Position numbers and translations under genes: made by a program. Under the pieces are notes generated by a model that was given only the letters and a program-made list of their open reading frames with translations, was not told the origin of the DNA and made no database searches. DNA of 48,688 nucleotides from Chloroflexota bacterium (GTDB taxonomy: Bacteria; Chloroflexota; Anaerolineae; Anaerolineales; UBA4823), in NCBI GenBank assembly GCA_037444705.1, contig JBBILY010000004.1, positions 1-48,688 of the forward strand, given 5' to 3'. Below are positions 4,707-9,689 of this stretch, in pieces (within the stretch, counting starts at the first letter, position 1; each line of letters begins with the position of its first letter).

Positions 4707-5990
4707 TTATTCTTCTTCAGGAGGGCGGGGTTCTTGGCTCTCTTCTGCTTCTGAACCCTTGAGTTCTTCCACCTCTTCGGCCAGGGCTATCTTCCAATCC
4801 AGATCGGTGTAGGCTGGGGAGTCCACTTTACGCAGGCTCAAGCCAATCCGCCGTCGTTCAGGGTCAATTTTGATCACCCGCAAGGTAACCACATCCCCTT
4901 CCTTCACCACCTCTTTAGGGTGATTAATGCGCTGTTCGCTCAATTCCGAGATGTGGATTAACCCTTCCAGATCTTCTTCCAGGCGGGCAAAAGCGCCAAA
5001 TTTGGTCAGATGGGTGATGGTGCCCTCCACCAATTGCCCTTCGCGCAGATGCTTCACCTTCTTTAGCCAGGGATCTTCCTGGGTCTGTCGGATGGAGAGG
5101 CCAATACGGCGGCGCTCGTGATCAATGCTGATCACTTTAACCTGGACCTCTTGGCCAACTTTGAGCACTTCATTGGGATGGTTGATCCGTTCCCAGGAGA
5201 TTTCGGATAGGTGCACCAGCCCATCAGCACCATCAATATTGACGAAAGCGCCAAAATCAGCCACGCTGGTTACCCGTCCGGTACGGATATCCCCTTCCTT
5301 GAGTTGCTCCAGCAGACGATCCTTGAGGGCCTCACGCGTCTCCTGTAAGGCAGCCCGTTCCGAGAGGATCAGGCGTCGCCGTTCGCGATCCACCTCGATC
5401 ACTTTACAACTAATCGATTCACCCACCATTTTCGACCAACGCTGGTCAGGAGTGTCTCCACCCAGCGCAGCGCGGCGCAGCATGCTGATCTGAGATGAAG
5501 GCACAAAACCCCGCAGCCGACCAAAACTCACCAGGAAGCCGCCTTTGTTATAGCCAACAATTTTGCTGGTAAAAACCTTGGCCTCTTTCAGCAACTTTTC
5601 AGCCTCTTCCCAGTCTTTCGCCTCACGGGCGCGCACATAGGAGAGCAGAACGTTGCCGTTAGCATCTTCGGGAACCACGATATAAACGGGGATCTCCATC
5701 CCTACCTGGAAGGTGGCGCGCTCCTCAGGCGGAATTTGCTCCAATTCACGTCCAGGAATAATGCCCTCGGACTTGGTGCCCACGCTCACCAGAATTTCGT
5801 TCTCACCAACTGAAGCGATAATTCCGGTACGAATTTCGCCTGCTTTAGGAAGGTCAAATTCCTGCTGCCCTAAAAGGGTCTCCATCGAGTTAGTCTCAGA
5901 ATTTGGCCGTTCCTCGGATGTTGATTGAACTAATGGATGAACTTCGGGCTCCACCCCCTGCCCGGAGAGAATATGATTATTTTCCATCAT
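4707..5990 (-). CDS. rpsA: 30S ribosomal protein S1 (four S1 domains)
   Basis: Four repeated S1/OB modules (GxV..V..fGaFV patterns: GGFLVSFGRLRGFVP, FGAFVNIDGADGLVHLSEIS, FGAFARLEEDLEGLIHISELS). Start taken at ATGATGGAA (5990) with GGAG about 10 nt upstream. The track ORF extends to 6053. Confidence 0.9.
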   Translation of the reverse strand: MMENNHILSGQGVEPEVHPLVQSTSEERPNSETNSMETLLGQQEFDLPKAGEIRTGIIASVGENEILVSVGTKSEGIIPGRELEQIPPEERATFQVGMEIPVYIVVPEDANGNVLLSYVRAREAKDWEEAEKLLKEAKVFTSKIVGYNKGGFLVSFGRLRGFVPSSQISMLRRAALGGDTPDQRWSKMVGESISCKVIEVDRERRRLILSERAALQETREALKDRLLEQLKEGDIRTGRVTSVADFGAFVNIDGADGLVHLSEISWERINHPNEVLKVGQEVQVKVISIDHERRRIGLSIRQTQEDPWLKKVKHLREGQLVEGTITHLTKFGAFARLEEDLEGLIHISELSEQRINHPKEVVKEGDVVTLRVIKIDPERRRIGLSLRKVDSPAYTDLDWKIALAEEVEELKGSEAEESQEPRPPEEE

Positions 5991-6104
5991 TAAGTAAACT
6001 CCGCATACGATTGAGATTGTGTTCATTATAAATCCTAAAAACAAACTTGGCAACCTTTTGATAAGAACAAGAGTGGATTATAATGAAAAAAACAAGAGGT
6101 AAAT

Positions 6105-7208
6105 ATGCCGCCTATTTATCCTTTTACTGCTATTGTTGCCCAAGAGCGGATGAAACGCGCTCTGATTTTGAACGCGGTGGATCCGCGTATTGGTGGAGTG
6201 TTGATACGTGGTGAGCGTGGCACTGCCAAATCCACAGCCGCGCGTGCCCTGGCTGCCCTGCTGCCTAAAGTGGCTGTAGTAGCCGATTGCCGCTTTGGCT
6301 GCGACCCCGATCGGCCTACCACATGGTGTACCGAATGTCGGGAACGCGTGGCCAAGGGTGAATCACTGCCGGTCGAACTGCGTGCTACACCCTTCGTTAA
6401 TCTACCCGTTTCTGCCACAGAGGATCGCGTGGTAGGAACGCTCGATATTGAGAAAGCCATTCAAAAAGGCGAACGCCACTTCGAGCCAGGCATCCTGGCA
6501 GCCGCAAATCGCGGTCTGCTTTACATTGACGAGGTTAACCTGTTAGATGATCACGTTGTAGACGTGCTGCTCGACTCAGCAGCCATGGGGATGAATATCG
6601 TTGAACGTGAGGGCATTTCTTTTGCCCATCCTGCACGTTTTATTCTGGTGGGCACTATGAACCCTGAAGAGGGAGACCTGCGCCCCCAACTGCTGGATCG
6701 GTTTGCCCTATCGGTCGAAATTCACGGTGTACGCGATGCGCGCGAGCGCGTGCTGATCATGGAGCGCAACCTGGCTTTCGAAAGCGATCCCGAAGGATTC
6801 CGCAAACAATGGCTGCCCAAAGAGGAGGAACTCTCACGGCGCATCGAAGAGGCGCGCACCCTGGTGGATAAGGTGACCTATACTCAGCGCGATCTGCTAT
6901 CCATTGCGGCCTTGAGCGCCTCGCTCAATGTAGAAGGCCATCGCGCCGATCTGGTAATCCTGAAGACAGCCCGAGCCCATGCTGCCTTCGAAGGGCGTAA
7001 AGCCATCAGTGAGCGCGATATCATCCTGGCCGCAGAACTGGCCCTGCCACACCGCATCAAGCGCGGCCCCTTCCTCCAGGCCGAAGTCACTATGGAAGAA
7101 CTGCAGGAACGCATCGAACAACTTCAGGGTGCGGCTCTCAGCACGGGCGAACCCGAACCCGTGCCTGAGGAGCGCAAACAACCCAGCCTCGAAAAAAAAA
7201 AGAACTGA
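6105..7208 (+). CDS. Mg-chelatase-type AAA+ ATPase (ChlI/BchI or ChlD N-terminal-like)
   Basis: YPFTAIVAQERMKRALILNAVDPRIGGVLIRGERGTAKSTAARALAALLP, Walker B LLYIDEVNLLDDHVVDVLLD, sensor/arginine-finger region MNPEEGDLRPQLLDRF, and C-terminal LALPHRIKR. The P-loop is GTAKS rather than GTGKS. From memory that form is typical of ChlD N-domains (unverified). The ORF ends in an A10 run (see findings). Confidence 0.85.
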   Translation: MPPIYPFTAIVAQERMKRALILNAVDPRIGGVLIRGERGTAKSTAARALAALLPKVAVVADCRFGCDPDRPTTWCTECRERVAKGESLPVELRATPFVNLPVSATEDRVVGTLDIEKAIQKGERHFEPGILAAANRGLLYIDEVNLLDDHVVDVLLDSAAMGMNIVEREGISFAHPARFILVGTMNPEEGDLRPQLLDRFALSVEIHGVRDARERVLIMERNLAFESDPEGFRKQWLPKEEELSRRIEEARTLVDKVTYTQRDLLSIAALSASLNVEGHRADLVILKTARAHAAFEGRKAISERDIILAAELALPHRIKRGPFLQAEVTMEELQERIEQLQGAALSTGEPEPVPEERKQPSLEKKKN

Positions 7209-8152
7209 TTGGGGAGATACAGGAAGAGGACTCTAAGCAAACCCAAACAGAGTCCTCCTCCCAAAAGATTTTCGAAAGCGGCAACGCCAACTGGTGGGAA
7301 GGCGGGGAGAAGGTCAAGATTGGGCAGACCTTTGTACCACGCCGCATCGAAAATCCCTTAGACAAAATCACGCGCCGCCAGGGAGGTAGGCGCTCGCGCA
7401 CCCTCACCCAGCGCAAGCGCGGACGTTATATCCAGGCGCGCCCCTCGCCAGGCAAAGCAGACGACCTGGCTTTCGACGCCACCTTGAGAGCCGCTGCCCC
7501 CTATCAAAAACAGCGCAGCGAAATGCGCAAACGGGTGGCTTTTGCCATCCGTTCCAGCGACTATCAACGCAAGGTGCGGGTTAAAAAAGCCGCAAACCTG
7601 GTGCTCTTTGTGGTGGATGCCTCCTGGTCCATGGCGGTAGCTGAGAGGATGGCAGCCACCAAAGGCGCCATCCTCTCGCTCCTGACCGATGCCTATCAGC
7701 GGCGCGACCGCGTGGGTCTGGCAGTCTTCCAAAAAGACCGCGCCACGTTAGTCTTACCTCCCACGAATTCTATTCAGTTAGCCAAGCGCGCCCTGGCCGA
7801 TATCCCCGTCGGTGGCAAGACCCCGCTTTCAGCCGGCTTGTATCTGGCTCATCAGGTGATTCAAAAGGAACGCCTGGTGCATCCGGATGTGATGCCGCTG
7901 ATCATCCTGCTCACAGATGGTGCCGGCAACGTCTCGATGAGCGGCTTGCCCCCGCAAGAAGAAGCTCATCTCATCGCCGAGCAAATCGCCGAGGATAACA
8001 TCCGCAGCGTAGTCATCAACATGGAGCATGCTGCTTTTGACCAGGGGCTGGCTCAAGCTCTGGCTCACCATTTGCACGCCCCTTGTTACACCTTGAGCGA
8101 ACTTAAAGCCGAATCGCTCTATCAAAAGGTGCGCGAGGAGATGGCCGGGTAA
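7202..8152 (+). CDS. VWA (integrin-I/MIDAS) domain protein, ChlD/BchD C-terminal-like; the true start is unresolved
   Basis: MIDAS DxSxS (VVDASWSM) and LLTDGAGN. Upstream of the track start (TTG 7484) the same frame encodes family-typical motifs GGRRSRTLTQRKRGRYIQARP...DLAFDATLRAAAPYQ. This frame is open from 7169 and has no ATG/GTG/TTG before 7484. Confidence 0.8.
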   Translation, partial: ELIGEIQEEDSKQTQTESSSQKIFESGNANWWEGGEKVKIGQTFVPRRIENPLDKITRRQGGRRSRTLTQRKRGRYIQARPSPGKADDLAFDATLRAAAPYQKQRSEMRKRVAFAIRSSDYQRKVRVKKAANLVLFVVDASWSMAVAERMAATKGAILSLLTDAYQRRDRVGLAVFQKDRATLVLPPTNSIQLAKRALADIPVGGKTPLSAGLYLAHQVIQKERLVHPDVMPLIILLTDGAGNVSMSGLPPQEEAHLIAEQIAEDNIRSVVINMEHAAFDQGLAQALAHHLHAPCYTLSELKAESLYQKVREEMAG

Positions 8153-8186
8153 ATGGCCTGAGGGGAACGCATTTGTGCGAACGGGG

Positions 8187-9689
8187 ATGAAACTGCTGCA
8201 TTTTTCCTGGCCCTTACTCCTTTTGATAACCCTTACGGCCTGCGCTGCAGATCGCCCCTCTCCTACCAATAGCGATCGGCCAATACCCACGACAGCATTG
8301 ATCACCTCAAGCCCACCCACAACCATCCTGCCAGCAACCCTCGCCCCTTCCCTCTCGCCCACAACACCTGCCGATCTACCCGCCACACCTCTCTCTCACT
8401 ATACTTTAACCGCCGTGCTCAACTACACGCAACATTACCTGGCGGTGGATGAGCAAATTCACTATATCAACCGCAGCGGTGAAACGCTCAATGAATTGCT
8501 GCTCGTCATCGAGCCGCTTAATTATCCGGGCGTTTTCAGACTCAACAGCCTGACCTGGCAAGATGGCCGGCCTATCCAGGGATACACCTTGGATGGTAGC
8601 CAGATGCACCTGCCTCTTGAGCAACCCTTGCCCTCGGGAGCAAGCGCGGATATCTCCCTGACTTATGAACTTTTCCTCCCATCACCTGTCCCCTCACCCG
8701 ATGTCCGCCCTATCCCTTTCGGCTACACTGCCCGTCAGGCAAACCTGGTAGATTGGTACCCTTTCATCCCTCCATACAAGCCCGGCCAGGGCTGGTTGGC
8801 TCACCCACCTGGCTATTTTGGCGAGCATCTGGTCTATGATATTGCCGATTTTGAAGTGAACATCCATCTTCCCCAGGAGCAGCCAACCCTGGTTATCGCG
8901 GCTGCAGCTCCTGGACAACGTGATGGCCAATGGTATCGTTACCGGCATGAAAAGGCGCGCAATTTTGCCTGGTCGGTCAGCCCCGATTACCAGGTGAGAA
9001 CTCACAGCGTGCAAGGGGTAACCATCTCCAGTTACTTTTTCCCCTTTCACCCTCAGGCCGGCGAGGCTGCGCTCAACACCACAGCCGAAGCCCTGACTCT
9101 CTATAGTCAACTCTATGGCCCTTACCCGCGCTCTACATTGAGCGTTGTGGAAGCCGATTTTTTAGATGGCATGGAATTCGATGGCCTGTTTTTCCTCAGC
9201 AATGGTTTTTATAACATCTATCAAGGTACACCAGGCGAATATCTGGTGGCCATCGCCGCCCACGAGACCGCTCATCAATGGTTCTATGCCCTAGTGGGTA
9301 ATGATCAAGCATTGGAGCCCTGGCTGGACGAAGCCCTTTGCACTTACAACGAAAAGGTTTATTACGAACGCCTGCATCCCGAGGCCCTGGATTGGTGGTG
9401 GCAATACCGCGTGCTTTTCTATGAACCCCAGGGATGGATCAACCGTAGCATTTATGAAAGTGGAGGATACCGCGCTTATCGTGACGCAGTTTACCTTAAT
9501 GGTGCCAGATTCTTTGACGATCTGCGAACTACCATGGGCGATCAAGCCTTCTTTACCTTCCTGAGCAAATATGTAAATCAGAGCGCTTACCACATTGCTA
9601 CAAGTAAAGACTTTTTTGACTTGTTAAGGCGTTCATCTCATCAAGACTTATCCTCAATATTTAATACTTATTTCAATAACCCTCCTTAG
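8187..9689 (+). CDS. M1-family (gluzincin) metallopeptidase, probable lipoprotein
   Basis: HETAHQWF followed 18 residues later by E (HExxH-x18-E). Signal peptide with lipobox LLITLTAC. Pro/Thr-rich linker after the Cys. Alternative GTG start at 8175. Confidence 0.8.
   Translation: MKLLHFSWPLLLLITLTACAADRPSPTNSDRPIPTTALITSSPPTTILPATLAPSLSPTTPADLPATPLSHYTLTAVLNYTQHYLAVDEQIHYINRSGETLNELLLVIEPLNYPGVFRLNSLTWQDGRPIQGYTLDGSQMHLPLEQPLPSGASADISLTYELFLPSPVPSPDVRPIPFGYTARQANLVDWYPFIPPYKPGQGWLAHPPGYFGEHLVYDIADFEVNIHLPQEQPTLVIAAAAPGQRDGQWYRYRHEKARNFAWSVSPDYQVRTHSVQGVTISSYFFPFHPQAGEAALNTTAEALTLYSQLYGPYPRSTLSVVEADFLDGMEFDGLFFLSNGFYNIYQGTPGEYLVAIAAHETAHQWFYALVGNDQALEPWLDEALCTYNEKVYYERLHPEALDWWWQYRVLFYEPQGWINRSIYESGGYRAYRDAVYLNGARFFDDLRTTMGDQAFFTFLSKYVNQSAYHIATSKDFFDLLRRSSHQDLSSIFNTYFNNPP

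Follow-up and report, generated by a model that had tools for sequence, protein, structure and literature searches.

Genes of the fs-chlD (magnesium chelatase) family are recoded by a −1 frameshift, and the family was reportedly developed further by Antonov in 2020 (MBE). The magnesium-chelatase cluster of fs-genes, in which a −1 shift occurs at a poly-A stretch, was discovered with GeneTack and validated with reporters that carried sequences of other taxa (Antonov 2013 NAR, PMC3711429), and its A_AAA_AAR site is treated in a review section entitled "Magnesium chelatase: also regulatory?" (Atkins 2016, PMC5009743). Among the Anaerolineaceae, fs-chlD has been catalogued in Brevefilum, Anaerolinea, Ornatilinea, Longilinea and Levilinea, which have neither a large chelatase subunit (cobN/chlH) nor B12 or chlorophyll pathways, and in which the function of the gene was called unknown (Kuznetsov 2022, PMC9227772). 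Here we analyzed a 48.7-kb stretch of DNA from a Chloroflexota bacterium of the Anaerolineae (contig JBBILY010000004.1, hereafter the window), in which a ChlI-like AAA+ open reading frame (ORF) runs, through a stretch of ten consecutive A's (A10), into a VWA-domain ORF in the −1 frame. The locus is an ordinary member of the published fs-chlD family, and the phenomenon is already known. The original prediction, made from the letters of the DNA alone, had described the A10 run as a slippery link between the two ORFs; the feature is real, strongly conserved and correctly spotted, and it has already been described for this gene family.

The following features of the family are present in the window: two ORFs that overlap by a few codons, the first ChlI-like and the second a VWA ORF in the −1 frame, a poly-A or A_AAA_AAR site within the overlap that is under purifying selection, and a fusion that constitutes a full ChlD-type protein with in-frame homologues. 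The purpose proposed for the family, namely the formation of a small and a medium subunit from one gene, would apply here alike, and we found no essential difference between the window and the family. What our analysis adds is modest. It consists of the clade-wide uniformity of the run and of the −1 state and of two points that may extend the published description: in-frame relatives retain the run together with an off-frame stop, and the structure downstream of the run is not conserved in the clade.

Two dnaX systems offer further comparisons. The E. coli dnaX gene (tau/gamma) shares with the window the A_AAA_AAG heptamer and, as predicted for the window, the formation of two products with a common N-terminal AAA+ module. 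However, the shift leads to the short product in E. coli dnaX and would lead to the long product in the window, a "reversed dnaX" layout that has been noted for the chlD family (PMC3711429, PMC5009743). In Thermus thermophilus, transcriptional slippage in dnaX gives rise to long and short AAA+ products in fixed proportion (PMC5009743). The window resembles this gene in having a run of at least 9 bases (9 in Thermus) with alternative-frame stops nearby. The long form of Thermus dnaX is the zero-frame product, as it is in the in-frame relatives of our locus described below, whereas the default of the window is the opposite.

Comparative sequence evidence makes it highly probable that programmed slippage at one chlD-like gene gives rise to both a short and a long protein. 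Directly observed are the anatomy of the locus, the family to which the fusion belongs, and the fact that the run, the −1 state and a stop close by are conserved; from these we infer the production of both proteins. In the proposed mechanism, a chlD-like gene of the TIGR02442 type would be split on purpose at the conserved poly-A, where the frame changes by −1. Normal decoding of an mRNA of template length would end at the TGA behind the run and give a 367-amino-acid ChlI-like AAA+ ATPase. In a fraction of expression events, a shift of one base would occur inside A10, by insertion of one extra A by RNA polymerase during transcription of the run and/or by −1 slippage of the ribosome on A_AAA_AAA_AAG. 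After the shift, decoding would go on with ...LEKKK-ELIGEIQ... through the acidic linker to the VWA/MIDAS part, and a 682-amino-acid ChlD-like protein would result. The locus would be a clean natural example of the co-production of two AAA+ motor subunits from one gene at a fixed ratio. For annotation, 6105–8152 should be treated as a single chlD-like gene that is recoded and has two products, and neither as a "magnesium chelatase" followed by a truncated "VWA protein" nor as a pseudogene.

The AAA+ ORF ends with GAA AAA AAA AAG AAC TGA, so that A10 begins at codon position 2 of the zero frame and the stop lies 4 nt past the run. On its 5' side the −1 frame is closed by a TGA at 7166–7168; its open stretch begins at 7169 and ends with the TAA at 8150–8152, and the overlap of the two frames around A10 amounts to 37 nt. 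The VWA frame has no ATG, GTG or TTG until the TTG at 7484, and just CTG 7205, ATT 7208, ATA 7217 and similar codons precede it. The end of the AAA+ ORF, the A10, the opening of the −1 frame at 7169 and the lack of a canonical start before TTG 7484 had been named in the original prediction and were confirmed on the sequence, as was the heptamer A_AAA_AAG within the overlap, to which a second in-phase heptamer, A_AAA_AAA, can be added. A −1 shift, or one added A in the mRNA, gives ...PSLEKKK-ELIGEIQEEDSK..., and the fusion of 6105–7201 with 7202–8152 comprises 682 amino acids. A10 is the sole homopolymer of at least 8 bases within the window (55.5% GC), but composition is a weak argument here because 15 of 100 dinucleotide-preserving shuffles of the window also contained an A10 somewhere. 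It is by its location in the 37-nt overlap and by its conservation in relatives that A10 is non-random.

The protein encoded across the run belongs to a defined family only when both halves are joined. The upstream ORF carries the Pfam domains Mg_chelatase, AAA_5 and AAA_lid_2, which make up a complete ChlI-type AAA+ module, and matches the ChlI/BchI chains 8osf, 6l8d and 1g8p in the PDB (E about 1e-100); against TIGR02030 (BchI-ChlI) it scored 420 bits over positions 1–323 of the 337-position profile and missed the equivalog cut-off of 466.95. The part in the VWA frame matches the BchD structure 2x31. Against the NCBIfam model TIGR02442, "putative cobaltochelatase", the fusion scored 787.8 bits over positions 1–640 of 641, exceeding the cut-off of 779.45, which neither half reached separately (506 and 275 bits); this curated cut-off was passed by the fusion only. 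With TIGR02031, the BchD-ChlD equivalog model, the fusion scored 456.4 bits, under the cut-off of 499.55. The fusion has a ChlD-like architecture (AAA+, acidic linker, VWA with MIDAS) of the TIGR02442 branch and is not a BchD/ChlD equivalog. The expectation of a fusion of about 680 amino acids with a ChlD layout was thus borne out by the full-length TIGR02442 match. Also borne out was the claim that VWA coding extends 5' of any canonical start: when the fusion was aligned with 17 in-frame homologues, 19 columns behind the A-run and ahead of TTG 7484 (W397 to T460) proved invariant, and the coding region clearly reaches up to the A-run.

The pairing of an AAA+ small subunit with an AAA+-linker-VWA(MIDAS) medium subunit is shared with the magnesium chelatase (BchI/ChlI and BchD/ChlD) and the cobaltochelatase (CobS/CobT). 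The locus is unlike these enzymes in scoring below the BchD-ChlD and BchI-ChlI cut-offs, in having a four-cysteine (Cys4) insertion and in having no ChlH/CobN partner or tetrapyrrole gene within the window or beside the genes of its relatives. The insertion lies in the AAA+ module and does not vary among the 18 aligned family members. Its motif, Cys-x3-Cys...Cys-x2-Cys (CRFGCDPDRPTTWCTEC; C62, C66, C75 and C78, window positions 6288–6338), resembles in appearance a zinc-ribbon-like insertion in the ChlI-type module.

We searched for related proteins with the fusion as the query and used the best 120 matches. These were single proteins of 636–736 amino acids that aligned across the junction, came from Anaerolineae or Chloroflexota metagenomes and were 65–82% identical over 92–100% of the query. 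In an otherwise hypervariable acidic linker, KKK was near-invariant at the position of the A10 of the window. Junction DNA was taken from 80 loci in GTDB species-representative genomes and 80 loci in metagenome contigs, the N- and C-terminal parts being placed at each locus by tblastn. The resulting census covers 109 distinct junctions of relatives, with an identity threshold of 68% or more in the N-terminal part; related junctions share kinship, and the counts and p-values given here overstate the support accordingly.

A run of A7 to A12 was present in all 109 junctions. The −1 state was found in 87 of them (80%; A9 in 42, A10 in 37, and A8 and A7 in four each), the in-frame state in 18 (A7 to A11) and the +1 state in four (A9, A9, A10 and A12). 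An alignment of orthologous loci had been suggested as a check of the original prediction, and the outcome, a two-ORF −1 layout in most junctions and an A-run in every one, together with the TIGR02442 fusion, supports its proposal that programmed slippage produces an I-like short and a D-like long product. Within the −1 group, whose divergence extends to 63% amino-acid identity, the run was A9 or A10 in 79 of the 87 junctions (91%), an in-phase A_AAA_AAN heptamer occurred in every junction, and a zero-frame stop followed 1–2 codons past the run-end codon in 71. The subclade of the window contributed 35 distinct junctions from independent assemblies, all of which read gAA AAA AAA AAg NNN T(G/A)A; the closest relatives, at 88–90% amino-acid identity, are among them and have the identical layout, namely an A10 that sits in phase 1 and is followed 4 nt later by the stop. 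In the DNA alignment of these 35 A10 relatives, the invariant block consisted of A10+G only. Lysine codons outside the run in the relatives' genes were 53% AAA and 47% AAG, and hence the all-A coding of KKK reflects a constraint at the nucleotide level and not at the protein level. The coordinates of the features in the window are listed in Table 1.

Table 1. Features of the recoded chlD-like gene and their positions in the window
Feature	Position	Strand	Basis or remark
Zero-frame ORF, predicted short ChlI-like AAA+ product, 367 amino acids, C-terminus ...SLEKKKN (stop)	6105..7208	+	sequence, Pfam, NCBIfam, PDB
Walker A GERGTAKS of the AAA+ ORF, intact	6210-6233	+	
Walker B DE of the AAA+ ORF, intact	6528-6533	+	
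A10 slippery run	7192..7201	+	sequence; A-run in 109/109 related junctions, in-phase heptamer in 87/87 −1 loci
In-phase slippery heptamer A_AAA_AAA	7193-7199	+	
In-phase slippery heptamer A_AAA_AAG, overlapping A_AAA_AAA	7196-7202	+	
Zero-frame stop TGA, two codons past the last run codon	7206..7208	+	
−1 frame continuation, acidic linker and VWA domain	7202..8152	+	stop TAA 8150-8152
MIDAS motif DASWS (DxSxS) in the VWA domain	7616-7630	+	
Stem-loop with 5-bp lower stem, 9-nt bulge and 9-bp upper stem	7212..7262	+	folding; lineage-specific

The anatomy fits both routes of slippage, by the ribosome and by the polymerase. We regard RNA-polymerase slippage as the probable main route in this clade, with a contribution from ribosomal −1 frameshifting, although the balance is close to even. 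Polymerase slippage is favored because the runs are held at 9–10 A's, the length of the RNA:DNA hybrid, and not at the 7 that the ribosome needs, and because relatives of the in-frame state also retain a run and an off-frame stop. The prevalence of A9 and A10 among the −1 junctions and the alternative-frame stops nearby match the sequence features of the Thermus type. A dependence of frameshifting on run length is typical of polymerase slippage, as well. In E. coli reporters with 7, 9 and 11 A's, frameshifting amounted to 10%, 40% and 63%, respectively (PMC3711429), and about 9 A's or T's are required for efficient slippage by bacterial RNA polymerase (PMC5009743). The ribosomal component is supported by the universal presence of the in-phase heptamer.

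Several observations, in addition to the kinship among the junctions, weigh against the proposal or against the leading part assigned to the polymerase. All four A7 and all four A8 junctions of the −1 group place the heptamer in the phase that the ribosome requires, which favors a ribosomal component and suggests that polymerase slippage is insufficient in those lineages. Published work reads the shift in the chlD family as ribosomal frameshifting. Moreover, four relatives (L021 with A9, L099 with A12, L118 and L121) are in the +1 state, and two of these, L118 (A9) and L121 (A10), have the same flanks, which points to noise in tract length arising from assembly or within populations. The rare +1 length variants may stem from errors of assembly or from a run whose length really differs within populations. 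With its 87 −1, 18 in-frame and four +1 junctions, all of which contain the run, the census is well suited to telling slippage by the ribosome from slippage by the polymerase.

The in-frame relatives bear on the choice of route. Orthologues with a single ORF (L081–L096 and L161–L167; for example, L165 213–2258 and L166 1501–3540) keep a run of A7 to A11 at the same position in the linker, and a −1-frame stop occurs within 1–11 codons in all 18 in-frame loci (Wilcoxon p = 7.6e-6, uncorrected for kinship). Those that share the synteny of the window keep A9 or A10 and have a ggNNTGA stop one codon off in the +1 frame. In such orthologues, a transcript lacking one A would end at the stop of the window's short product. 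Judging from the sequences, single-ORF orthologues could therefore yield the short product by slippage, as a mirror image of the layout in the window, and both arrangements, −1 and in frame, can probably give both products. The retention of the run and of a nearby off-frame stop in in-frame alleles suggests that the mechanism is frame-agnostic and relies largely on slippage by the polymerase. Long A-runs also occur in the linker of some distant in-frame homologues of 42–61% identity, such as L009 at about 5977 (Chloroflexaceae, A10), L059 at about 9061 (Thermodesulfobacteriota, A10) and L034 at about 6282 (Methanolliviera, A9), and are absent from the linker of most archaeal, Dehalococcoidia and Streptomyces homologues.

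We tentatively extend this to a broader reading, to which we give somewhat less than even credence: the poly-A may be a frame-agnostic device that works mainly through RNA-polymerase slippage, coupled with a ChlI/ChlD-like pair that acts without a large subunit of the ChlH/CobN type in Anaerolineae. Transcripts with n−1, n and n+1 A's would always be made, and the −1 state, with the short product as the default, and the in-frame state, with the long product as the default, would deliver the same two proteins. In the subclade of the window, the T(G/A)A stop that terminates the short product would be the same whichever state the genome is in. Lineages could then flip repeatedly between the states with their function kept, and the pair, if it indeed acts without a large subunit, would have a function other than tetrapyrrole metal insertion. 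As for the second part of this reading, a Pfam scan of 36 ORFs in the window revealed no cobN, chlH, second chlI, cobalamin or chlorophyll gene. Likewise, no CobN/ChlH was found among eight of the large ORFs (at least 850 amino acids) that were scanned from about 0.98 Mb flanking 108 related loci, and no linked tetrapyrrole gene was found at any of L161, L162, L164, L166 and L167. In the published classification of contexts without a separate chlI, the presence of cobN defines stage 8 and its absence stage 1 (PMC9227772). The absence of a large-subunit gene near our locus agrees with the Anaerolineaceae listing in that work, and it raises the question, also posed there, of the role of a ChlI/ChlD pair in bacteria without a nearby large chelatase gene.

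Other explanations of the split layout were weighed against programmed slippage. A homopolymer miscall or assembly error, one of the possibilities listed in the original prediction, would mean that the true run is A11 (or A8) and that the gene is one uninterrupted chlD-like ORF. In-frame orthologues do occur in the same subclade and with the same synteny (P0001, P0003 and P0005; 80–82% identity), and the near-identical metagenome contigs of L118 and L121 differ by a single A. Nevertheless, a miscall is very unlikely, given that the 35 independently assembled junctions of the subclade, closest relatives included, share one layout, that −1 junctions outnumber in-frame junctions 87 to 18, and that the in-frame alleles of the subclade gain their frame through changes 5' of the run and not through A11.

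Slightly less probable still is that the locus holds two separate genes, with the VWA protein initiated at a non-canonical codon (CTG 7205 or ATT 7208) or through reinitiation once translation has terminated at the overlapping stop. The codon of the VWA frame that overlaps the zero-frame stop has the form NT[AG] and is mostly TTA, GTA or ATA. It is GTG, TTG or ATG in 15 of the 87 −1 relatives, giving an NTGA overlap that would suit reinitiation, and some downstream initiation was seen in parts of the reporter set of Antonov 2013 (PMC3711429). In the other 72, however, the codon is TTA, GTA, ATA, CTG or CTA, and 65 of the 87 lack any canonical VWA-frame start close to the junction. A separate start would also leave unexplained the all-A run in 109 of 109 junctions and the common in-frame fused orthologues. 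Independent initiation of the VWA part was rejected as a general mechanism, since no canonical start is conserved.

The least probable explanation is that the gene is a frameshift pseudogene, or that its tract is phase-variable at the DNA level (a contingency tract) and toggles the long product. In its favor, long homopolymers are hot spots of replication slippage, all three frame states are seen among relatives, and the state has changed repeatedly in evolution; L093 (A11, in frame) and L057 (A9, −1), for instance, share 93% identity. Against it, both halves are under strong purifying selection (65–91% identity, invariant motifs), the closest relatives have the same layout, the −1 state has persisted throughout a clade whose divergence reaches 63% identity, the run and the stop just behind it are maintained, and random on/off switching would not leave 80% of junctions in one out-of-frame state. 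Length variants are rare (L099, L118/L121).

A hairpin downstream of the heptamer had been predicted, with perfect 9-bp arms and a spacing of 19–23 nt. The arms, at 7226–7234 and 7249–7257, are perfectly complementary, whereas the spacing needed revision: a lower stem is formed by GGGAG at 7212–7216 and CUCCC at 7258–7262, and with this stem included the hairpin begins 9 nt past the heptamer, not 23 nt. In thermodynamic terms the stem-loop is real (−20.1 kcal/mol, z = −2.4), but it shows neither covariation nor conservation, and evolutionary support for it as a stimulator was not obtained. When the structure was mapped on the 35 A10 relatives, 42.9% of cells were paired, compared with 43.1% in shuffles, and RNAalifold returned zero consensus pairs for these relatives; on these grounds, the hairpin was rejected as a conserved stimulator. 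The stem-loop of the window is lineage-specific and possibly either incidental or a local stimulator. In the 60 nt 3' of the run, the 87 −1 loci as a whole were slightly more structured than controls (mean z −0.43, compared with 0.00; p = 0.002), which fits the remark that the family has structure potential without sequence conservation of it (PMC5009743). By inspection, no Shine-Dalgarno-like stimulator was present about 10 nt upstream of the run; a single GGAG is located at 7169–7172, 20–23 nt upstream. The geometry thus differs from that of E. coli dnaX, in which the Shine-Dalgarno-like element lies about 10 nt upstream and the hairpin 5–6 nt downstream. A scan of the window at Rfam gathering thresholds found one tRNA-Leu only and no riboswitch.

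The gene is preceded by a divergent gene for an S1-domain protein (4707–6053, minus strand) and followed by a gene for an M1 peptidase (8175–9689, plus strand). This synteny is common to some orthologues (among L161, L162, L164, L166 and L167), and a CitMHS-type transporter replaces the peptidase in others. The genes of the window are housekeeping genes and encode RadA, ClpC, the S1-domain protein, the M1 peptidase, MFS transporters, an ArsR-type regulator, GlgC, YchF, PepF, PdxS/T, kinases and others. Directly 3' of the zero-frame TGA, a TTG-started ORF of 50 amino acids (7209–7361, plus strand) lies in the zero frame; it overlaps the conserved coding region of the −1 frame and is probably spurious.

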